Positions 838-20,299 of a DNA stretch of 23,414 nt are shown in pieces. The stretch lies in UHGV virus genome UHGV-0114356; one strand, given 5' to 3'. The notes below the pieces were generated by a model. That model was not told where the DNA came from, did not search any database, and saw nothing but the letters and a program-made list of their open reading frames with translations. Made by a program: the position numbers and the translations under genes. This DNA comes from a virus. Position 1 is the stretch's first letter, and every line of letters begins with the position of its first letter.

Positions 838-870
838 AAGAAACCCCCCGCGCTAAGCGGGGTTGTTTTT
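838..870. terminator. bidirectional intrinsic terminator between convergent lipoprotein gene and J
   Basis: GC stem ccccgc (846-851) / gcgggg (857-862) with loop gctaa, flanked by an A-rich run on the 5' side and ttgttttt on the 3' side; T-tracts on both strands. Confidence 0.6.
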
Positions 871-1480
871 ATCCTGAGAATGAACCAGAACCGCGCGTCA
901 CAATGACGGTCGGTGAATTTATATAAGCCCCCATACTATTTTGAGCGGATACCTTAATTTTAACTGTAACGGCACGACTGGTTACAGGTGATGAGTGCAT
1001 TACAAGACGCTCGTTGCCGTCCATAGGAAGGTTTTTTTCTGAACCTTCAATGTTTATCGTGCAGCCACCAAAACCTTTAACGTTTGCCATAACGCAGATA
1101 TGTCTTCTATGTGCTGCACTTGATGTGTCATTGTATGTAATTGTTTTTTCGAGTACGCCATCATTTAACCTGCTAACGTCAGATCCTGTGTACATATTCG
1201 CAACGTCTCCCACAAAACTGGTAGCTTCCACAGTACCCGTGAATTTACCGCTTGTTGCTTGTATCTCACCAGTAAATCTACCACCACTAGCGTATACTAT
1301 ACCTCTCACAGTTACATTATTGAATTCAGCATCCCCAGCTTTATTTAACTTCCAACCAGCAGAACCAGCTGCATAGTTGTTGGACTGGATATAGTTGCCG
1401 ATTTTGGCGTTCTCAATGGTGCCGTCCTGGATGAAGCTGGCCCGGATGAATGTCTGCCCGTTCTGGATCACGAACGGCAA
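869..1480 (-). CDS. J: host specificity protein J (tail tip/central fibre), C-terminal fragment 3 of 3, out of frame with fragment 2
   Basis: Translation PFVIQNGQTFIRASFIQDG... is collinear with the lambda gpJ C-terminal region (lambda ...MFVAQGNQIFMNDVFLK...). The listed start is an in-frame TTG; this frame is open upstream to a stop at 1640-1642. Confidence 0.7.
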   Translation of the reverse strand: MPFVIQNGQTFIRASFIQDGTIENAKIGNYIQSNNYAAGSAGWKLNKAGDAEFNNVTVRGIVYASGGRFTGEIQATSGKFTGTVEATSFVGDVANMYTGSDVSRLNDGVLEKTITYNDTSSAAHRRHICVMANVKGFGGCTINIEGSEKNLPMDGNERLVMHSSPVTSRAVTVKIKVSAQNSMGAYINSPTVIVTRGSGSFSG

Positions 1481-1482
1481 AG

Positions 1483-3198
1483 CTACGCTATTTCCGGCTG
1501 CCGTGGTGACGGCAGTGTTACAGTCCCGCCGACCATAGTAGTCACGGCGAAACGGTCTGCCAGGAAGATTACCTGTGACTGCATGCCGGAGGGTGTATTT
1601 TGAACCCCTATACCCATCCCGGCAGCGTAATACTGCCCGTTACTGGACACCCCCACCTTGATGTTATACATCGCGCTGAGGTTACCGTTTACGTTCGCAA
1701 TGGCCTGAGCGTTGGTGGTGATGGCTGAGGTATGCCCGTTCACCGTCGCCGTGATGCTGTTTACCTGCGTGGCCATAGCCTGCTGGTAATCGGAGAACGT
1801 CTGATTCAGGCTGTTTATGGATGCCTTGTTGCCGTTGACATCCGTCTGCAGGCTCAGCAGAGAGCGCGCCGTTGCCTCCTTCTCGTTAACGATTACCTCA
1901 TCAATACGATCCAGCTGCGCACTGTTACCGGCGACCGTCGCGGAAAGCCTTTTGCGTGTGGCCACCTGCGCCAGCCCGTTCTGGATTATCGCAATTGCAG
2001 AGTTCTTCACCCCGCCCGTCATGCCGTCCATCGACACAGAAATCTCGTCGATCTTCACTTCGGCCTGAGCCAGCCAGTCAGCGTTCTCCAGGATGTCTTT
2101 CGCCTGCTGCTCGAGTTCGTCGGCATGGTTTTTAATTTCGTCAGCCATGCCAGCAATTTTTTCATTGCTGTCCACCGCGTTCTCGATCAGATCTTTGAAC
2201 GTATCGGAGCCTTTCATGTCCTCCAGGATTGCATCGGTGATATCGGAAACATCGATGCTGGCCTGCCCGCGCACCCAGTCTGTCCAGTCGCTCTGATTCC
2301 CGATGCGGTCAACCAGCCGTGCCCGGTACCAGAATTCCTGCCCTGCCTTCAGCCCCATCTGCTGATAGAGTTTCTGAGGATACGGCACCGACGCCAAAAG
2401 CATTGGATTTGCCCCATCGACTGAAGCGCTGTATTGCAGTTCCGTGCTCAGGGTGTCGGCGGTATCTGCGGGGAAACCCCATGTAATGTTGATCCCTAAT
2501 ACAACATCCTCTGTTGCTGTTAGTCCGACAGGTTTGGGCACTTCACCGGTGCGGCCGGTAAGATGGGTCAACGCAGACGTGGCCCAAAGGCTGGACGCTC
2601 CCCCAGAGTTAATCGCACGGACGCGCACAAGGTAATCGCCCTCGAAAATGCCAGGCACTTCGATATTTCGTAACCCGGTTTCAGGCACGTTTACCCATTC
2701 GTTATTTCCGCGCTTCCACTGTGCCCGGTACGCTATTACGTCCGACTGCAGTTTGCCGTCTTTATCAATTGGCGCATCCCACGAGGCGGTTAGCGTGGCC
2801 ACGCGTTGCCCCTGGCGAACCGCATCATAGCTCGATACCACGATGTTGGTCGGCTGGTTAACTAGCCCGGTCGGAATCAGGCTTATCGGAGGAGTATCGA
2901 GGCGAGCATTGTTATCAACGGCGTCGTATTTCGACGCGTTATACTCCGCACCGGTAATGGTGAAGGTGTTTTCCTCATCATCAAATTTTAGGTTCGTTAC
3001 CCGGAAATACTGCAGGCGCAGCTGACCAGCATCAATGACGAATACGGCATTAGGTAATGGCGCCGCCGTGAACGGCGTGGACAGGATCAGCTGCGTGCCA
3101 TTTACGGCCTGTATCATCCGGCTTTCAACGGTACCGCCCTGGGTGCGAATCATCAGCGTATCGCCCGCCACCGCACTGGTGCCCCGGTCAATGGTCAC
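1483..3198 (-). CDS. J: host specificity protein J, central fragment 2 of 3 (FNIII-like region)
   Basis: Collinear with lambda gpJ from about TLTLDREITLP onward (here AVTIDRGTSAVAG...) to ...SQFLVAANRIAF (here ...SQVIFLADRFAV). Listed start is a GTG; frame is open upstream to 3255. Confidence 0.7.
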   Translation of the reverse strand: MTIDRGTSAVAGDTLMIRTQGGTVESRMIQAVNGTQLILSTPFTAAPLPNAVFVIDAGQLRLQYFRVTNLKFDDEENTFTITGAEYNASKYDAVDNNARLDTPPISLIPTGLVNQPTNIVVSSYDAVRQGQRVATLTASWDAPIDKDGKLQSDVIAYRAQWKRGNNEWVNVPETGLRNIEVPGIFEGDYLVRVRAINSGGASSLWATSALTHLTGRTGEVPKPVGLTATEDVVLGINITWGFPADTADTLSTELQYSASVDGANPMLLASVPYPQKLYQQMGLKAGQEFWYRARLVDRIGNQSDWTDWVRGQASIDVSDITDAILEDMKGSDTFKDLIENAVDSNEKIAGMADEIKNHADELEQQAKDILENADWLAQAEVKIDEISVSMDGMTGGVKNSAIAIIQNGLAQVATRKRLSATVAGNSAQLDRIDEVIVNEKEATARSLLSLQTDVNGNKASINSLNQTFSDYQQAMATQVNSITATVNGHTSAITTNAQAIANVNGNLSAMYNIKVGVSSNGQYYAAGMGIGVQNTPSGMQSQVIFLADRFAVTTMVGGTVTLPSPRQPEIA

Positions 3199-4718
3199 GG
3201 CCTTAAGACCAGCGTTATACCCGGTGATACGCCGTAAACGCGCCCTGACAGGCGTTCATCTGCAAACGCAAATACGGTGCCCGGCACGAATACAAAGCCA
3301 TCAAGTCCAGTCTGAAGCGTGATAATGCGGTCAAGGGAGTTGGAATACACCGCCCACCCGCCACGCCGCTGCGCCTCGCTCTCACGCGTACAACCGATCG
3401 CAGTGATTTGTGTCTGCTTAAACTTGAACTGCCTTACCAGTTCCGGAAACATCACTGCCGTGGTGCGGTCCTGGTAGTGGTTATCCGGATCGCTGAAGTT
3501 AATCAGCGCGCTGGAGAATCGGTTTTTCTCACTGCCACTCGAGTACACCGGCTTACCCACCACTGATGCGCGAGTGAGGATCTGCAACTTCGTAGTGTCC
3601 GCCGGCATGTCAGAGACAACATTGAACATGTTGTTGCCCCAGAAAGTCATTCCGTTGAAGCCCGCGGCAATATCTTTAATCACCTGCCAGGCATCAGCCT
3701 GGGACTGGATGTAAACGTCAAACATGAAGCGTGGCTCGGTACCGCTTCCGCCTTTCCCGTCGGGTACCTTCTGGTCGCAGCGCTGGGCGATGCGATAGAT
3801 CTCCCACTTATCGAGCATTTCTGGCGTCACGCGGCGCCCAAGGCCGAAGCGCGGCTCAGTCAGAACATCGAACCAAATCCACGCCGGGTTATTCGTCCAG
3901 CCCCATTTAAACGTCCCGTCCCATGTTCCGCTATAAGTCCGCGCTATTGGATCATAGTTCGAAGGGATTCGGATGATGCGCCCCTTCGGCATGCAGGAAA
4001 TCTTAGGGATGTTGTTGAATGACTTTGCGTTAAAGGACACGTACAGCAGCGCTGTGTGTGGATATCGCAGGCGAGCATCGATCACTTCAGTAATCGCTTG
4101 CACCTGCGTTTTGTTCTGCAGCATCTGGCTGGTGCTGTCATCGGTGTCACGCACCACTCGAATTTGCCAGCCAGTGCTGGCTTTGGGAAGATTAATACGG
4201 TGGGTTAGTTCATAGAGCGAGCTGAGCTTCTCTGTGACGGTTTTCGTCATGACTGTCGAGTAAGCGCCACCGTCCACCGCCAGATCAATATGGTACTGAA
4301 CCGTAGTGCCGACAATATCCCCATCGTTTTCCTGCTGCTGTAACCCAGGGATGCCAATACGAACCAGCACCGCGTCAATCTGGGTGTTACTCAGTGCGCG
4401 GGTCCATGGTGTGGCCTTTGTCAGCGATACCCCAACCGTAGTTTCATTCTCGACTGCAGGGAATCCCGGTATTGGTGTCTGGGTCTGTGTGCCAGGCCGG
4501 AAATCCCATGACACATTTTCAAAATTCATCGTTCCGTCGGGGTTTCCCAACGGCGTACCGTCCAGGAATATCCGGGTCGCATCCAGGCCACCAGCAAACT
4601 CCCCCTCCCCGAGCGCCAGCAGCATGCGGCAGCGCGCCATTGACTGAGCCGAATCGGGCTGTTCTACAGGTGTGTGCTGCTTCTGGCTGCCACCCTTTGC
4701 ACCAGTGATCGCTTCCAT
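3195..4718 (-). CDS. J: host specificity protein J, N-terminal fragment 1 of 3
   Basis: N-terminus MEAITGAKGGSQKQHTPVEQ resembles lambda gpJ MGKGSSKGHTPREAK; conserved blocks LQNKTQ, IPSNYDP, YSGTWDGTFK, EPRFGLG, CDQKVPDG. Ends prematurely relative to lambda J (about 1130 aa). Confidence 0.8.
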   Translation of the reverse strand: MEAITGAKGGSQKQHTPVEQPDSAQSMARCRMLLALGEGEFAGGLDATRIFLDGTPLGNPDGTMNFENVSWDFRPGTQTQTPIPGFPAVENETTVGVSLTKATPWTRALSNTQIDAVLVRIGIPGLQQQENDGDIVGTTVQYHIDLAVDGGAYSTVMTKTVTEKLSSLYELTHRINLPKASTGWQIRVVRDTDDSTSQMLQNKTQVQAITEVIDARLRYPHTALLYVSFNAKSFNNIPKISCMPKGRIIRIPSNYDPIARTYSGTWDGTFKWGWTNNPAWIWFDVLTEPRFGLGRRVTPEMLDKWEIYRIAQRCDQKVPDGKGGSGTEPRFMFDVYIQSQADAWQVIKDIAAGFNGMTFWGNNMFNVVSDMPADTTKLQILTRASVVGKPVYSSGSEKNRFSSALINFSDPDNHYQDRTTAVMFPELVRQFKFKQTQITAIGCTRESEAQRRGGWAVYSNSLDRIITLQTGLDGFVFVPGTVFAFADERLSGRVYGVSPGITLVLRP

Positions 4719-13987: not shown

Positions 13988-14470
13988 TCACCCCCTTTCG
14001 ATGCGGATCTGATTGCCGCCCACCACTAGCCCACGCAGCGAGGAATAGAACCAGGGGAATGACGGCGAGGCCTTATTGGTTCCCGGCTCGTACTGCACGG
14101 TCACCGCGCCCTCTACGCGCTCCATCGTCACCGCCCCGCCACCAGCAACCGAAGGCGTGAGGTCAATCTCCTGCGATTCGATAGCCAGGCGACATTGAGC
14201 ATCAACCACGCGCTGTGGAATAGCATCGTCCGGAAGGTCAACGCCATCGAAGCGTAAGCCCGAGCGCGGCCACGACAGCGGCTGTGATGCGCTGGAACGC
14301 TGGCCACGCCATGTTTTGCCTTCCAGAAAGTCCATCGCCTGCATCAGCATCTGGCTGCATTCGCCATCTTCAGCAGGGATGGTGTATCCGCGCCCCGCAG
14401 CGAACGCGCGCAGATCACCAACGCTGGCATAGCTGTTGAAGTCAGACGAATGGGGATCGGCATTAATCAT
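13988..14470 (-). CDS. putative head-tail connector/adaptor protein
   Basis: 160 aa; N-terminal YASVGDLRAFAAGRGY...W...LSWPRSG pattern recalls phage head-tail connector families; position after the capsid gene cluster. Confidence 0.4.
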   Translation of the reverse strand: MINADPHSSDFNSYASVGDLRAFAAGRGYTIPAEDGECSQMLMQAMDFLEGKTWRGQRSSASQPLSWPRSGLRFDGVDLPDDAIPQRVVDAQCRLAIESQEIDLTPSVAGGGAVTMERVEGAVTVQYEPGTNKASPSFPWFYSSLRGLVVGGNQIRIERG

Positions 14471-14483
14471 CTCAGAGCTCCTC

Positions 14484-14795
14484 TCAGGCTTCGAAAAGCT
14501 TCTGCTTTAACGCATATCCCATCAACGCCCACAACTCGCTTTCGGCGTTCTCAATAGCAATTTTCTCGCCAATTTCAGCGTTGTCGTTAGCGGAGGAAAC
14601 TGAGCACGACGGATTCCCTGTTACTGCGAATCCGTTTTGAGTGGTGATGACCGCCCAGCGAAGCACCTGCCAGGTGACGGATACGTGCTTCACGATCTCG
14701 GCATGCTTAATATTCGCCTTCAACTCGCCCAGCGTAACGCGCGGCGCGTTCAAGCCTTTGGCCTGAATTTCCTGCTCAATATCTTTATCGCTCAC
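14484..14795 (-). CDS. conserved phage hypothetical protein (103 aa)
   Basis: Continuous ORF in the operon frame context; no family assigned with confidence. Confidence 0.45.
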   Translation of the reverse strand: MSDKDIEQEIQAKGLNAPRVTLGELKANIKHAEIVKHVSVTWQVLRWAVITTQNGFAVTGNPSCSVSSANDNAEIGEKIAIENAESELWALMGYALKQKLFEA

Positions 14796-14797
14796 AG

Positions 14798-15019
14798 TTA
14801 CTCCTCCAGTCGCCAGTCCAGCGCCAGCCAGTTATCGACTTCGTCAGGGTGAACCTCAGCGCTCAGCGGACCGCCGGGGAACTCTGGCTCGTCACGCACC
14901 ATTACCACCAGCTCAATACCCTGCGGTTCCTGCGGGGCAGGAGTTTTTACATCACCACTCTGCGCGGCAAGCTTTTCAGCCTCACGCTGTGCGCGCTGTT
15001 CTTTGGTTAATCCGGCCAT
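14798..15019 (-). CDS. small acidic hypothetical protein (73 aa)
   Basis: ATG 15017-15019 with strong AGGAGG RBS (rc of 15023-15028), immediately after the capsid-gene terminator; MAGLTKEQRAQREAEKLAAQ...; the listed TTG start at 15037 lies inside the terminator stem and is not used. Confidence 0.45.
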   Translation of the reverse strand: MAGLTKEQRAQREAEKLAAQSGDVKTPAPQEPQGIELVVMVRDEPEFPGGPLSAEVHPDEVDNWLALDWRLEE

Positions 15020-15030
15020 TGGGCCTCCTG

Positions 15031-15052
15031 AAAACAAAGGGGCCGAAGCCCC
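15031..15052 (-). terminator. intrinsic terminator/attenuator after the major capsid gene
   Basis: Minus-strand hairpin ggggc-ttcg-gcccc (15039-15052) followed by tttgtttt (plus-strand aaaacaaa 15031-15038), directly after the capsid stop at 15058. Confidence 0.5.
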
Positions 15053-15057
15053 TATGG

Positions 15058-16194
15058 TTAACCCATGATGATGGCGGAATGTTCAGGCTGAACGGATGCC
15101 ACACCCCATGCCACACCAACCTCGTAACGTACCTGGCGGTACTGGCGGTACAGCGCGATCTGGAAGGTGATGCCGGATGCTGGGTCGGTCACGTTCATCA
15201 CATCGTCGGCGGTATCGCCGCCTTTTGGCATTGCCGGGGTGCGGCACGCCAGCAGGAATGCGTTGCGGTCGAACGCCATGTTTGGCGCAAACTCGCTCAG
15301 CACAGTGACGGCTGCCTGGTCTGCCAGATCCTGACGCAGACCCGGCGCACCAATGGTGATGCTGGAAGAAGTGGCGGCAACGACCAGATACTGATTGTCA
15401 TCACCATCGAATTTCACTGCGGTGCCGACTGCAATCCCACCAGTACCTGCAGAGATAGCAACGATGATGTCGCCTTCTTTCTTCGCACCGTTGACCTTGT
15501 AGCCTGCGGCGGTGCTTTTCGCGGTACGCTTGATGTTGGCGGATTCATGCAGGTTGAAGCCCATCACGCGACCGATGATGCCTTCGCGCAATAGCTGGTC
15601 GGTACCGGCTTCATTCGCTTTGAACAGCACGGACTGCTTACCACGAATGGAGGCCATCGCTTCACCGCCCAGCACCATACGCAGGTCGGTAGTTGGCGCA
15701 CCGTTATCAACCAGAATCTGGCGAGCCAGCGCTGCATCAGACAGATCGTCTTTGATGCTGAATGGCGTATCTTTCGGCGCACCGACAGCGCGAGAGGATT
15801 TGTAGTACAGCGCCGCCAGATCAGCATCCATCTCATTGCTCAGCGCGCGGAAGGCCTGAGAGAACTGGTCAGCCAGGATGACGTCGTAATTACCTGACGG
15901 CCCGATAGCCAGCTGTTCTTCACCGTTCCATTTGACCGGGGCCATTTTGGATTTGGTGATTTTGACATCCACGGTACCGATGTTCTGATCGCCATCGTTC
16001 GGTGCGGTCGCTGCGGGGGTGATATCGACGGTGGTGGTTTTTGGTGCCACCGGCGCGGTGACGGTCTGGTCTTTAGCCGCAGCGTCAGCTTTCGCGTTGC
16101 GCGCAACGGCAGGGATGAAGCCCACCTGCTCGCGGGATACGCGGTTCAGTGCGGTGTACAGAGTAGGAATCAACCCAGTAAGCGTATTGCTCAT
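15058..16194 (-). CDS. major capsid protein
   Basis: 378 aa, the abundant structural gene following a scaffold-like gene and followed by an attenuator; AAGGA RBS before ATG 16194; Ala/Gly/Val-rich composition typical of HK97-fold capsid proteins. Fold not verified. Confidence 0.75.
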   Translation of the reverse strand: MSNTLTGLIPTLYTALNRVSREQVGFIPAVARNAKADAAAKDQTVTAPVAPKTTTVDITPAATAPNDGDQNIGTVDVKITKSKMAPVKWNGEEQLAIGPSGNYDVILADQFSQAFRALSNEMDADLAALYYKSSRAVGAPKDTPFSIKDDLSDAALARQILVDNGAPTTDLRMVLGGEAMASIRGKQSVLFKANEAGTDQLLREGIIGRVMGFNLHESANIKRTAKSTAAGYKVNGAKKEGDIIVAISAGTGGIAVGTAVKFDGDDNQYLVVAATSSSITIGAPGLRQDLADQAAVTVLSEFAPNMAFDRNAFLLACRTPAMPKGGDTADDVMNVTDPASGITFQIALYRQYRQVRYEVGVAWGVASVQPEHSAIIMG

Positions 16195-16213
16195 ATTCTA
16201 AATATCCTTTCGA

Positions 16214-16966
16214 TTAATCGACGATGCTGACGCCATTGCTCAGTGCAGCCTGCTTGCCTGCGCCATCCAGAGCGTCGAACGCACCGCGTTTCATGGTTTT
16301 TTGCCCGGCCTGATGCTGCGACTGGTGAGAGCCGCCGCCGCTGTTACCGGACGCTTTGAGGATGTAATCTTTCTGCGGATGCGACTCGACCAGAGACTCC
16401 AGGGCCTCATCAAAGCTGGCTAACTCGCCGGGCTTGGTGCGTGAGAACACCTTATTGCCCTGGCCGTCGTAGGCCACAACCTTCCCTTCTTCGATTTTGA
16501 AGTTCTGACCGAAGTAGGAACGCACGAACTCAGTCGGGATCGCCATCTTCTCGGAAATGAACTTAGAGCCACCGAAGCGGCCGCCGATCATCTCGTCGTA
16601 GAGTTGAGTTTCCAGCTGTTTGGTCTTGCCGTTCGCCTCGTCCAGTTGCTGTTGGAAAACTTTGGTGATCTCCGCCTTTACCTGGTCAACGGCACCAGCA
16701 TCGATCAGTTTTTTCTGGTCGATTTTGGTCATCATCTCCAGGGCTTCGAGCGCCTTGGCCGGGTCGGTGATGCCAGAGAATTTCGCGAGATTGGCTTCCG
16801 CCGCTTCCTTCGCTTCGCGGTGAGTTTTCGCCTCGCCATTCAGGGAGGTGATTTTGGTCATCGCTGCGACCGCATCGAACGGGATCTCTTTGCCATCATC
16901 ATGGATGTACACAGGCATACCGTTTTCAACGACCACATTTCCGTTAGCATCAAGTTTCAGTTTCAT
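16214..16966 (-). CDS. putative capsid scaffolding protein
   Basis: ATG 16964-16966 with GGAG RBS (rc of 16967-16980 = gctggagcaaaaca) gives MKLKLDANG...; helical, charged, Lys/Glu/Ala-rich; located directly upstream of the capsid gene. The track start at 17005 has no RBS. Confidence 0.55.
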   Translation of the reverse strand: MKLKLDANGNVVVENGMPVYIHDDGKEIPFDAVAAMTKITSLNGEAKTHREAKEAAEANLAKFSGITDPAKALEALEMMTKIDQKKLIDAGAVDQVKAEITKVFQQQLDEANGKTKQLETQLYDEMIGGRFGGSKFISEKMAIPTEFVRSYFGQNFKIEEGKVVAYDGQGNKVFSRTKPGELASFDEALESLVESHPQKDYILKASGNSGGGSHQSQHQAGQKTMKRGAFDALDGAGKQAALSNGVSIVD

Positions 16967-17044
16967 TGTTTTGCTCCAGCCTTCCGGCCATACGTAATGG
17001 GTCATCCGACCCGGGCACCGCGTCGCATCCGCTCAGCGGCAGGC

Positions 17045-17069
17045 ATAAAAAAAGCTGCCCGGAGGCAGC
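17045..17069 (-). terminator. intrinsic terminator closing the two-gene insert
   Basis: Minus-strand hairpin gctgcc-tccg-ggcagc (17054-17069) followed by a 7-T tract (plus-strand A run 17047-17053), just after the stop at 17073. Confidence 0.55.
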
Positions 17070-17072
17070 CTG

Positions 17073-17282
17073 TTAGATAAATTCGACGGTTACTACGCCG
17101 CGCAGTTTGCGGGAATAGAACTCATCCCGCTTGCGCTTGTGGACCCGGAGTGGATATGGATAGAAGCATGCGATTCCTCGCTTAACATCCGCCCATATGC
17201 AGCGTTTGGCCTCGTTGCCGTTAACGAACACTCGGCGCTTACCGCGGCCATCGCCCACATGGTGAAAATCGTCATCTCGCAT
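17073..17282 (-). CDS. small basic hypothetical protein (69 aa)
   Basis: ATG 17280-17282 preceded by GGGGGG (rc of 17283-17297 = cttggggggtgttct); MRDDDFHHVGDGRGKRRVFVNGNEAKRCIWADVKRG...RVHKRKRDEFYSRKLRG, Arg/Lys-rich. Frame choice and start are uncertain. Confidence 0.4.
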   Translation of the reverse strand: MRDDDFHHVGDGRGKRRVFVNGNEAKRCIWADVKRGIACFYPYPLRVHKRKRDEFYSRKLRGVVTVEFI

Positions 17283-17305
17283 AGAACACCCCCCAAGCAA
17301 CTGGT

Positions 17306-17770
17306 TTAGAGAATTTGCCAGTCATCAGCCAAGACGTCGGTTTGGCTTGGTGCCCAAGGCACGCGAGCGCCATTTGGGTATGGCATAGCACCATTGCCCG
17401 GCACCGGATAAATTAAACGAATGTACGGCAGGTCCACAGATGGCGACTGCTGGACCAGCTCAAGCCACAGGCCCTTGCCGTTCCAGCCTGCGCGGGTGAC
17501 ACGCTTGCCTGATTTCAGGGCTTCGACAGCCAGTCCGAAGCTAAGCCCCGCCACTGGTCGGTAGGCTTTGTCGAACACATCTTTCGGACTCCAGCTCACA
17601 TACCCGTTGAAGCGATCGGTATTTGGCTTTCCGCCATCCAGATACTCGACGAGATAACCTTCATCACTTCCGTTTTCGTCACTTGGTAACTCCCAACCAC
17701 GAAAGTCGTTATATGCCAGACGGGTCATCGGGTAAGCATTGATGAGCTTCACGCCAATATGTTGAGTCAT
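17306..17770 (-). CDS. DUF2829-like (Tad2-family candidate) protein with N-terminal extension
   Basis: 154 aa; C-terminal region AVEALKSGKRVTRAGWNGKGLWLEL...VPWAPSQTDVLADDWQIL matches my recollection of the DUF2829 signature (the family containing Thoeris anti-defence Tad2); assignment is from memory, not from a search. Confidence 0.5.
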   Translation of the reverse strand: MTQHIGVKLINAYPMTRLAYNDFRGWELPSDENGSDEGYLVEYLDGGKPNTDRFNGYVSWSPKDVFDKAYRPVAGLSFGLAVEALKSGKRVTRAGWNGKGLWLELVQQSPSVDLPYIRLIYPVPGNGAMPYPNGARVPWAPSQTDVLADDWQIL

Positions 17771-17790
17771 TGTTTTATTACCTTATTCAG

Positions 17791-18894
17791 TTATTCAAAA
17801 GCCGACGCATCCACGCGGCGTAGCTCGTCCAGGGTCAGGAACTCCCCGGCATCGTTGAACATCTCCGGCACGGTGATTTTGCCGTCACGGAGCATCTGCG
17901 CACGAGTAACGCCCAGCACCTGCTCCTGCCGCGCGTAAGGCTGCCTCACAAGCCATTCGGCATAGCTGGTATGCACTGGCACCTGGCCGTCCATGGACGC
18001 TCTGGTTGCGTTGCTCAGTTCGTCAGGCGGTATCTGCAATTCTTCCCACGACTTAGTGATGAGGATTTCACCGGAGCGACAGCAGAAGTGGATTTTGCCG
18101 GGTCCGCGTAGGTATGGGACCACATGCCCCAGCGGCTTGCCGTCGAGCGTGTAGAGCTTGCGGTCGCGGATGATGCACCACTGGCTGGTATGCGTGTCCA
18201 GCGTGGAGGACCACTGCTTGGCCTTCACGATATCGCTGTTGGCCTGGGCGAACTCCTGGCGCGCTGTGGCGGCCATGTGATTCACCGCGGTGCGGGTCAC
18301 CACCGCCAGGTCGCGACGGGATGTGTTGATCACCCCGTCCTCGCGATTTCTCTGCGGCGTACCCGCTACGCGCCGGACAATCTGCTCTACCGTTTCGCCC
18401 TGGAGGAAACCGGAGCGTACAGCGTTGGTGATTTTGTCCAGCCGATCCAATTCAAGCTTCTGACTCCACTCTTTCAGCAACCGCCCCTGAAAGGGCTGCG
18501 CCACTGCTGAGGCGTAAACCTGTTCTGCCGCAATGCTCTGGAGCGGCACATGCTTGAGGATCTGTTTAGGGATGATGCTGCTGAACAGGTTCAGCTGATA
18601 CCCGGTCTCATATTCAACGTAGCGCGTCAGTTCGCGCGTCAGCGCAGCATTAACCGGTTCATAGGCCTGCTGGTTGAGGTCCCGCACACCAGCCAGCAGC
18701 GAAGCTAGGCGGCGGGCGCTGTAGGTGTCGGCACGCTTGCCGTCCAGCAGCACCAGCAGTTTTGCAGCAAGGTCAGCATCCAGCCTGTTCAGCAACGACA
18801 CCATGCGCCGGGCGACGCCAGTGCCGTAGCGGTTCACATAAAGCCCGTGCGCTATGGTTTCGTCCTGAAGCCTGTCATTGACGGAACGGGCCAT
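17791..18894 (-). CDS. head morphogenesis protein (Mu F-like / SPP1 gp7-like minor capsid protein)
   Basis: 367 aa directly downstream of the portal gene with 1-nt spacing; size and position typical of Mu F-like head morphogenesis proteins. Confidence 0.7.
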   Translation of the reverse strand: MARSVNDRLQDETIAHGLYVNRYGTGVARRMVSLLNRLDADLAAKLLVLLDGKRADTYSARRLASLLAGVRDLNQQAYEPVNAALTRELTRYVEYETGYQLNLFSSIIPKQILKHVPLQSIAAEQVYASAVAQPFQGRLLKEWSQKLELDRLDKITNAVRSGFLQGETVEQIVRRVAGTPQRNREDGVINTSRRDLAVVTRTAVNHMAATARQEFAQANSDIVKAKQWSSTLDTHTSQWCIIRDRKLYTLDGKPLGHVVPYLRGPGKIHFCCRSGEILITKSWEELQIPPDELSNATRASMDGQVPVHTSYAEWLVRQPYARQEQVLGVTRAQMLRDGKITVPEMFNDAGEFLTLDELRRVDASAFE

Positions 18895-18895
18895 A

Positions 18896-20299
18896 TCACA
18901 CCTCGCCTATCGTTCTGGTATCCAGCGAGGAGGATTCAGCCAATAACTCGTCCAGGACCTTTTCTGGGTCTGCGTCTGCATCAATCAGGTTAAGCTTCTG
19001 CAGCGCCTTAATGGCATCGATACGGCGGAGGTCGCCACCCTGGCGAAGTGACTGAATAGCCAGCGCCGCAGGCGGGTTAAACTCTTTCGACTCGACATCC
19101 AGCTCAGTGCGAACATCAACGTTGCCACCATCTTTCTCGCCGATGTACTCAGCCATGATTTGCAGGATGTTGTCGATCGCATCTTCAAGGCTGGTAGCCA
19201 TGGTGTAGAGCGGTGACTGCTCCTGCATTTTCTCTTCAGAGGTCTGGTCTACCGATTTGGTAGAGGTGTTCTCTGTACGCAGCAACTTCGCGCCCGCCTG
19301 GCGCATCTGCTCCACAAGTTCTGCCAGCGACTCTTTACCAGCACCGATGGAGGAGCCTGTATGCTCGACGTATTCCAGACCCTGCTTTTGCCGATCAGTG
19401 AACGACGTAGCTGAAGACGAGCCAATTATCAGCTCTTGCCCCTCTTCCAAACCGAACACCGTGAGCAACGGCACCCTGGCGACGTGCAGAATGTTGTCCT
19501 GCTCGCTCTGGCTCTGCCAGTGCTTGATGTTCAGCAGGGCCATGTTGAGCAGTGGCGGTGAACCACACATAAACCCGGTGCGTTTGGTGTAGAGCGTGAC
19601 CAGAGTGATATCCTGGCGGGATGTCTGCCACCCATCGAATAGCGCCCAGGTCGCGGCACCGTCAGCATCTTTAGCCTTGCGGTAAATTTCCACCTTTCCG
19701 GGTGTCAGGTATCGGATTTGCTCGACTTTGGTCTGCCCGAAGTCGTCGCCGTCTTCGACCACAACCTCTTTGATACGCAGCGCAGTCAGCACCACTTTTC
19801 CGTCCACCATTTTCGACTTCCAGCCAATTACCTGGCGTGGATTAAGCATGGTGACATAGGGGCGCGCGCCGGTAGTTTTCTCTTCAGCTTTGGTTTTCAC
19901 CTTTTCGGTGTCCACCCTGGGATAATCCACCAGCGCGTGGGAGAGTCCATACTGCATCGCCAGACCGAAGAATGCCTGCGCCCATACGTCCAGGCGCGTC
20001 CCCTCAAGGTCGAAGTTTTTCGCATACTCTCGCAGCTGATCAGGCACATTCTCGGCAAGCTTAATGGGCTCGGCGAATACACGCCCGATGTTTTGCTTAA
20101 TGGTCTCTTCGTAGGCTGGCAGAAGCGTGGCCACGGCGAGGCGTTTTTTGTAATCCTCTTTGTCTTCCTTGGGCCAGCGAGGGAGATAGGACTCGCCCAG
20201 CTGGCGCATATACAGCGTGCCGCCCATCAGGGCATCGTTGATATCCCACGCCTCGACCATGTTCCCATAGTCCAGATTTGGGGTTGAAATATCAGGCAT
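18896..20299 (-). CDS. portal protein
   Basis: ATG 20297-20299 gives MPDISTPNLDYGNMVEAW... (467 aa); the track start at 20374 would overlap the terminase gene. Large acidic protein immediately after the large terminase gene. Confidence 0.8.
   Translation of the reverse strand: MPDISTPNLDYGNMVEAWDINDALMGGTLYMRQLGESYLPRWPKEDKEDYKKRLAVATLLPAYEETIKQNIGRVFAEPIKLAENVPDQLREYAKNFDLEGTRLDVWAQAFFGLAMQYGLSHALVDYPRVDTEKVKTKAEEKTTGARPYVTMLNPRQVIGWKSKMVDGKVVLTALRIKEVVVEDGDDFGQTKVEQIRYLTPGKVEIYRKAKDADGAATWALFDGWQTSRQDITLVTLYTKRTGFMCGSPPLLNMALLNIKHWQSQSEQDNILHVARVPLLTVFGLEEGQELIIGSSSATSFTDRQKQGLEYVEHTGSSIGAGKESLAELVEQMRQAGAKLLRTENTSTKSVDQTSEEKMQEQSPLYTMATSLEDAIDNILQIMAEYIGEKDGGNVDVRTELDVESKEFNPPAALAIQSLRQGGDLRRIDAIKALQKLNLIDADADPEKVLDELLAESSSLDTRTIGEV

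Follow-up and report, generated by a model that had tools for sequence, protein, structure and literature searches.

What is a Tad2-like gene doing among the head-assembly genes of a prophage? The question is raised by virus genome UHGV-0114356, a stretch of 23,414 nucleotides (referred to here as the window), in which two small genes encoding products of 154 and 69 amino acids (aa) are located between a Mu-F-like minor head gene and a scaffold gene. An earlier note on this DNA had described the 154-aa open reading frame (ORF), the 69-aa Arg/Lys-rich ORF, and a hairpin followed by a run of seven T residues (T7) at this position, and all of them lie where it had placed them. The larger product is probably a Tad2-type counter-defence sponge whose gene is optional cargo of the late head operon, a reading suggested by its sequence, its predicted structure, and comparison with solved relatives. 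Tad2 proteins sequester the signals of the Thoeris, Pycsar, and CBASS (cyclic oligonucleotide-based antiphage signalling system) defences, and sponge domains are often fused to each other.

The C-terminal Tad2 domain

Residues 76-154 of the 154-aa protein have the Tad2 profile, a predicted Tad2 fold, and the residues that contact glycocyclic ADP-ribose (gcADPR). The Pfam family PF11195 ('Tad2-like') is matched at 72.4 bits (cut-off 25; E=4.6e-20) over residues 77-154 and profile positions 2-73 of 73. A phmmer search against PDB sequences returned SPO1 Tad2 (8SME) with E=5.4e-11 as well as ModTad2, SptTad2, and HgmTad2/AcrIIA7. An AlphaFold2 model of the monomer, built with 48 homologues, has a mean pLDDT (predicted local distance difference test score) of 85, and its C-terminal domain is predicted to adopt the Tad2 fold (helix alpha1 and an antiparallel sheet with C-terminal helix alpha3). 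In a Foldseek search with this model, all 19 PDB matches at E <= 1e-3 are Tad2 structures. The C-terminal similarity to the DUF2829/Tad2 family to which the earlier note had pointed is far above chance and is borne out by the Pfam score, the matches to solved structures, the predicted fold, and the contact residues.

The authors of the SPO1 Tad2 paper listed W25, N26, W73, S76, T78, and D79 as the contacts of 1''-3' gcADPR, and the HgmTad2 paper gave W21/N22 and S90/T92/D93 as equivalents, the mutation of which abolishes binding. In a HMMER alignment the pocket contacts fall on W96, N97, W139, S142, T144, and D145 of the 154-aa protein. Among 120 close homologues, GWNG is present in every one (120/120) and the W-x-x-S-x-x-D motif in at least 110. 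SPO1 Tad2 (Gp34.65; PDB 8SME, 8SMF, and 8SMG), the founding member of PF11195, belongs to the same domain family and has the same fold, and all its main gcADPR contacts fall within two motifs, GWNG and W-x-P-S-Q-T-D-V-L-A-x-D-W, that recur unchanged in the 154-aa protein. SPO1 Tad2 is a single domain of 89 aa, however, whereas the 154-aa protein has an extra N-terminal domain of 75 aa; the loop region that separates the two pocket tryptophans is also five residues shorter here, three adenine-side contacts differ, and the domains share about 35-40% identity.

By analogy with the solved Tad2 proteins, the C-terminal domain would assemble into a homotetramer with inter-subunit pockets that bind an ADP-ribose signal derived from TIR (Toll/interleukin-1 receptor) domain proteins. 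The signal would most likely be 3'-cyclic ADP-ribose (3'cADPR, the same molecule as 1''-3' gcADPR) of type I Thoeris, while histidine-ADP-ribose (His-ADPR) or N7-cADPR are possible. The preference for 3'cADPR is a weak one, adopted because SPO1 Tad2 has the same P-S-Q-T-D motif, while P-S-V-S-D takes its place in ModTad2, a binder of His-ADPR (from a Myroides odoratus prophage; PDB 9EIB with His-ADPR) that also has an extra pocket. The bound signal would be kept from the Thoeris effector, which would thus be blocked in lytic growth after induction or infection, and neither would be aborted. For the 154-aa protein the tetramer, the ligand, and the phenotype are extrapolated from relatives that have been solved or tested.

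SPO1 Tad2 does not bind cyclic dinucleotides, while HgmTad2 binds them through a long insertion between the two pocket tryptophans (HgmTad2/AcrIIA7, PDB 8KBI-8KBM). The stretch between these tryptophans comprises 42 residues in the 154-aa protein compared with 47 in SPO1 Tad2 and 65 in HgmTad2, and because it is this short an HgmTad2-type dinucleotide pocket is unlikely. The insertions of ModTad2 and HgmTad2 are missing or shorter here. Assignment to the dinucleotide-binding subgroup (HgmTad2, SptTad2, and SaTad2) was considered and rejected on the 42-residue spacing. The same stretch is hypervariable, with lengths of 39 to 62 residues among homologues that have near-identical N-terminal domains, which points to recombination or to rapid diversification of a specificity-determining insertion. 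Such variability fits the plasticity reported for Tad2 specificity, which extends to Thoeris types I, II, and IV, CBASS, and Pycsar. In homologues that share near-identical N-terminal domains and GWNGKG, the segment between the tryptophans has been swapped wholesale for others of unrelated sequence.

The N-terminal domain and its partners

The earlier note could not place the first 75 residues and supposed that the protein may be a new fusion, but the architecture proved to be an established one. The 154-aa protein matches phrog_872 end to end (residues 1-153, E=2.1e-60), and the best 120 database matches listed are all 147-228 aa long, 119 of them covering at least 97% of the query. N4 gp49 (43% identity over the full length, E=9e-45), Kapi1_043 of the Kapi1 prophage (62% identity), and PHROG 872 have the same N-domain plus Tad2 architecture from end to end. 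Judged by its sequence, the 154-aa gene is an ordinary added member of the known Tad2 family with a two-domain architecture that was already known. An NCBIfam search gave no match for either the 154-aa or the 69-aa protein.

The N-terminal domain (N-domain, residues 1-75) is predicted to be a beta-alpha-beta-beta-alpha module with a pLDDT of about 97 over residues 11-40. It matched no Pfam entry even at E <= 10, no NCBIfam family, and no PDB structure by profile or by fold. Since Acb4 is known to be fused to Tad2 and to Sequestin, a divergent Acb4 was considered as its identity and rejected: PF13876 was not matched at E <= 10, hhalign gave 0.1% against the Acb4-like protein of the window, and no PDB match was obtained. 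The N-domain is 50% identical to the N-terminus of N4 gp49. A homologous domain (hhalign 97.2%, E=4e-11, 31% identity) forms the N-terminal part of 'RyR Tad', the gp68 protein of Pectobacterium phage vB_PatP_CB1 and another fusion of an N-domain to a gcADPR sponge. In RyR Tad, however, the sponge domain is RyR-repeat-like (PF02026) rather than Tad2, and the N-domain is without the RGW-LP-DENG and DGGKPN loops. The RyR-Tad N-domain forms a domain-swapped dimer in the crystal (bioRxiv 10.64898/2026.06.04.730250). The first strand of the N-domain modelled here (residues ~3-9, in which G6 is near-invariant and K8 invariant) is unpacked in the monomer model (pLDDT 72), and this would fit a strand swap like that of the RyR-Tad dimer.

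The N-domain is widespread. A search of 1.84 billion representatives with its profile retrieved 2,734 clusters at 50% identity, of which 1,310 reached E <= 1e-10, and stand-alone proteins of ~73 aa are frequent. Conservation reaches at least 90% at about 30 of 70 positions when phages of Proteobacteria, Firmicutes, and Bacteroidota are compared, and the conserved core of the family, Y-I-G-T-K...P-M-x-R...E-G-Y-L-V-x-Y...Y-x-S-W-S-P-x-x-x-F, is present in the 154-aa protein. The 143 best representatives comprise 108 with the domain at the N-terminus, 14 with it at the C-terminus, 13 with it in an internal position, and 8 that consist of the domain alone. A fusion to a known sponge family is found in 102 of these 143: Tad2 in 47, Sequestin (PF21825) in 38, Acb4 (PF13876) in 16, and an Acb2/Tad1 hairpin in 1. 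Single-linkage clustering of the fusion partners merged Tad2, Sequestin, and Acb4 into a single component because there are triple fusions, and this analysis yielded domain positions only. Some N-domain proteins hold more than one sponge domain, single representatives are fused to WDGH, AP2, or HNH_3 domains, and in 41 of the 143 fusion proteins (P0252-P0394) the partner regions have no Pfam match. In the supplementary tables of the Sequestin/Lockin preprint, many Sequestin homologues carry the N-domain and a few Lockin homologues carry a diverged version of it; the text of the preprint makes no mention of the domain. Its fusion partners are almost only immune-signal sponges: Tad2, Sequestin, Acb4, Acb2/Tad1, RyR-Tad and, for the diverged form, Lockin.

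The domain-swapped dimer of RyR Tad suggests that the N-domain of the 154-aa protein at least contributes to oligomerisation, and it possibly provides a second counter-defence activity. One of two readings is that it serves as an oligomerisation handle for sponges. The other, advanced tentatively and not regarded as the likely outcome, is that it is an autonomous counter-defence module (a sponge or a protein inhibitor of another signal or system) rather than a passive dimerisation handle. The autonomous module gains favour because stand-alone copies are many and so large a share of positions is conserved, and fusion to known sponges is the same signature that led to the discovery of Sequestin. 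The Acb4-Tad2 protein of Pasteurella phage Pm86, the Tad2-Sequestin proteins, and the Acb4-Sequestin proteins (Ab09/YH6) follow the same principle of two small oligomeric modules per polypeptide, with Tad2 as one module in the 154-aa protein. In the sponge-sponge fusions both halves are proven sponges, whereas the N-domain here is not Acb4.

The N-domain also bears on whether the protein could be an anti-CRISPR of the AcrIIA7 type, which would bind the trans-activating CRISPR RNA (tracrRNA) and block Cas9 loading. This is very improbable. Type II-A CRISPR-Cas9 is rare in Enterobacteriaceae, which counts against such a role. AcrIIA7 proteins are DUF2829 members and do match the query (8KBI, E=8e-8; 9KZR, E=1.3e-6), but the matches span only ~30 residues around GWNG, and the N-terminal 'head' of AcrIIA7 consists of two long helices whereas the N-domain here is beta-rich. 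Some phage records label homologues 'anti-CRISPR protein', and a 2026 paper described tracrRNA binding by AcrIIA7 without the head domain; however, full-length pdAcrIIA7 with its N-terminal domain was inactive, and another laboratory saw no anti-Cas9 activity of Tad2 proteins. Although the DUF2829 core is common to both, the protein was not assigned to the AcrIIA7 class, which is also defined by a basic groove for RNA binding and by inhibition of Cas9, in view of the short match and the different N-terminal domain.

An optional cassette in the head operon

The Mu-F/scaffold junction occurs in four alternative states in the aligned relatives. In E. coli strain 167 the junction is empty and 106 bp long, and in phage HK639 it holds a 38-aa hydrophobic ORF and a different, annotated terminator. 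In a third state, seen in E. coli ET729 and a Salmonella contig, only the 69-aa ORF is present and the hairpin after it is that of the window. The fourth state, with the Tad2-like gene as well as the 69-aa ORF, is that of the window itself and of 11 E. coli genomes. Because related prophages have this junction empty, with the 38-aa ORF, or with the 69-aa ORF only, the Tad2-like gene is optional cargo and not head machinery. The earlier note had regarded the two genes as ones that a canonical head module does not need, and prophages lacking the Tad2-like gene at exactly this junction agree with that view; the comparison with related prophages that it had proposed showed that the gene is not universal and has no fixed link to head assembly. 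The HK639 ORF (L001, 3170-3286, minus strand; MPQIMVGLVSIALGLAAIVISSRSIYEMWRFMREQKNK), which stands in place of the two genes, is unannotated, as is the intact 69-aa homologue of ET729 (L002, 3175-3384, minus strand) in its RefSeq record.

Alignment of the window DNA with the corresponding DNA of HK639 and ET729 delimits a cassette of ~500 bp that holds only the Tad2-like gene and is inserted between the last Mu-F-like codons and the small ORF (Table 1). Its exact ends are ambiguous owing to a TTTGA(A/G)-like junction sequence at both sides. Prophages in 11 of 5,426 complete E. coli genomes match the 1-kb region at 98% identity, and in these genomes the 154-aa product is labelled 'DUF2829 domain-containing protein' by PGAP (the Prokaryotic Genome Annotation Pipeline) and RefSeq.

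Table 1. Positions of the two genes, their domains, and flanking features in the window
Feature	Coordinates	Strand	Remark
Mu-F-like minor head gene, 367 aa	17791..18894	-	
Two-domain protein, 154 aa (N4 gp49 / Kapi1_043 / phrog_872 type)	17306..17770, stop included	-	
N-terminal domain, residues 1-75; conserved beta-alpha-beta-beta-alpha module that travels with sponge domains	17546..17770	-	
C-terminal Tad2-like (DUF2829) domain, residues 76-154	17309..17545	-	
Basic protein, 69 aa (phrog_3540)	17073..17282, stop included	-	
Intrinsic-terminator-like hairpin, 8 bp, GC-rich, 4-nt loop, plus T7 tract	17045..17071	-	
Cassette of ~500 bp holding only the Tad2-like gene, approximate relative to ET729	17299..17800	-	three-way DNA alignment
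Scaffold gene (DUF6651)	start 16966	-	matches annotation in relatives

Homologues of the 154-aa protein are encoded elsewhere at other sites that typically take up cargo. In the P22-like prophage Kapi1 the gene lies between Rz and terS, and in N4 gp49 is located beside the virion RNA polymerase, in an anti-signalling hotspot adjoining an Acb4 gene; both positions differ from that of the window gene. In a Klebsiella podovirus-type prophage the homologue is found between scaffold-like and capsid genes. This last arrangement, the location of the window genes within the head block, flanked by the Mu-F-like gene and the scaffold gene, and the very basic small protein would be expected if both genes encoded minor head-assembly or virion components of the lineage, for instance a decoration or internal protein together with a small head protein that binds DNA. 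Such a structural role is hard to credit, however, since collinear head modules exist without one or both genes, homologues of both are encoded at non-structural loci, and the C-terminal domain is unambiguously a Tad2 domain.

The 69-aa basic protein is the product of a separate mobile accessory gene. R or K accounts for 17 of its 69 residues (25%), its isoelectric point is 10.1, and it matches phrog_3540 with E=2.6e-32; members of this family are also encoded at unrelated loci in Acinetobacter and Pseudomonas phages. The ORF differs from the ET729 copy by 33 synonymous and 18 non-synonymous changes, and the resulting ratio of non-synonymous to synonymous rates (dN/dS) of 0.065 marks it as a real gene. 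Searches of Pfam and of PDB sequences with the 69-aa protein were empty, and its AlphaFold2 model (12 sequences) has a pLDDT of 51 and is unusable.

The stem-loop after the small ORF (17071..17052, 8 base pairs, then T7) has a folding free energy of -14.4 kcal/mol (z = -2.6 compared with shuffled sequences). The earlier note had called it the inserted genes' own terminator. The hairpin and T7 are present, but since ET729 has the same hairpin after its 69-aa ORF without a Tad2-like gene, the terminator belongs to the junction or to the small ORF and not to the Tad2-like cassette. A simple consensus scan of positions 14300-19000 found no sigma-70-like promoter, and for this reason the 69-aa/154-aa pair does not appear to be a classical self-contained moron, an accessory unit of a prophage late operon with a promoter and a terminator of its own; presence/absence polymorphism is observed, and the terminator is present but common to variants without the Tad2-like gene. 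The ATG start of the 154-aa ORF lies 20 nt past the stop of the Mu-F-like gene. This spacing and the lack of a promoter of its own suggest that the Tad2-like gene is probably transcribed by read-through with the late head operon.

Expression might instead occur in the lysogen. Transcriptome work published in 2026 reported that Kapi1_043 is expressed more highly than any other gene of the Kapi1 prophage in lysogens, and the same paper proposed from homology that it is Tad2-like. The window gene could accordingly be pictured as a lysogenic-conversion gene that acts mainly in the lysogen, either sequestering a host messenger (cyclic di-GMP or another cyclic nucleotide) or pre-loading the cell with sponge, with altered host physiology or prophage protection at induction as the consequence. 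HgmTad2 and SptTad2 bind cyclic di-GMP with very high affinity, and the terminator that lies directly downstream would keep transcription of this kind out of the head genes. This role is nonetheless unlikely for the window gene: it starts 20 nt after the Mu-F-like gene with no sigma-70-like promoter upstream in the window, the insertion that forms the dinucleotide pocket of HgmTad2 is much shorter, and the same protein is encoded by lytic phages, N4 among them.

A Tad2-type sponge that blocks Thoeris effectors during lytic growth is the favoured reading, and several points weigh against it. The tetramer and its pockets are assumed, the model being that of a monomer. The adenine-side contacts I63, T65, and D67 of SPO1 Tad2 correspond to P, P, and G in the 154-aa protein, in a part of the alignment that is uncertain. 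Tad2 ligand specificity varies widely and is unreadable from sequence, and among the first five Tad2 homologues to be tested, one failed to inhibit type I Thoeris. The RyR-Tad N-domain alone had no anti-type-I-Thoeris activity (bioRxiv 10.64898/2026.06.04.730250). Neither a tested two-domain homologue nor any experimental test of the N-domain plus Tad2 sub-family was found in the searchable literature; the N-domain motif is absent from all 84 sponges tested in bioRxiv 2025.08.24.671296, N4 gp49 and Kapi1_043 have no published biochemistry there, and a search linking N4 gp49 with Tad2 returned nothing relevant. The missing promoter also belongs on this side, as does late co-expression with head genes, which is an unusual timing for an anti-defence gene.

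A second sponge-family cassette and the head module

The window contains the late region of a lambdoid, HK639-like enterobacterial prophage, and all genes of interest are on the minus strand. A metallopeptidase-like gene, the small terminase (DUF2280) and large terminase genes, the portal gene (DUF4055), and the Mu-F-like minor head gene precede the two genes of interest. These are followed by the scaffold gene, a P22-type major capsid gene, a small head protein gene, a 103-aa gene, a DnaT_2-type adaptor gene, and tail genes.

The 103-aa gene (14484-14795, minus strand) encodes a protein that scores 55.3 bits (cut-off 27) against PF13876 (Phage_gp49_66), the family of the Acb4 anti-CBASS sponges, and for which phmmer found no match to a solved structure. 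It forms a cassette the size of the gene, located between the genes for the small head protein and the adaptor; the window and E. coli VREC0761 have this cassette, and HK639 and ET729 lack it. Because the Acb4-like gene is also a precise cassette, the head module holds two independent sponge-family insertions. The pairing mirrors that of N4, in which gp48 (Acb4 family) and gp49 (N-domain plus Tad2) are adjacent (L013, 2109-2962). Since gp48 is the PF13876 protein, the name 'N4 Gp49' that Pfam gives to the family disagrees with the gene numbering of N4 in RefSeq.

Other features of the late region were observed. The small head protein encoded past the capsid gene (14798-15037, minus strand) contains a Gln/Glu-rich stretch of variable length that differs among the window, HK639, ET729 (CAGCAGGAACAG repeats), and VREC0761. 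A second terminator-like hairpin (GGGGCTTCGGCCCC and a T-rich tail; 15037-15053, minus strand) directly follows the major capsid gene and is conserved in HK639, ET729, and VREC0761. The lambda-J-like tail tip protein (869-4718, minus strand) is split into three ORFs (3195-4718, 1483-3198, and 869-1480), and the Phage_Tail_Tip profile is divided into positions 1-71 and 72-138 at the frame change near 1480-1485. This suggests a frameshift that reflects either a defective prophage or a sequencing error.

The Tad2-family gene itself adds little, as the family is large, is named in Pfam, and is annotated at this locus in RefSeq genomes. The head module is more informative in that it shows the loading of counter-defence cargo, at single-gene resolution, into late-operon junctions of temperate enterobacterial phages. 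With the Acb4-like cassette in the same head module, two genes away, two sponges would be co-expressed with capsid proteins. The N-domain sub-family includes gp49 of the model phage N4 and the most highly expressed gene of the Kapi1 prophage, and the near-exclusive association of the domain with sponges offers a testable lead to counter-defence function and to sponge families. If the N-domain is indeed an autonomous module, it could serve as bait for further sponge families among its uncharacterised partners.

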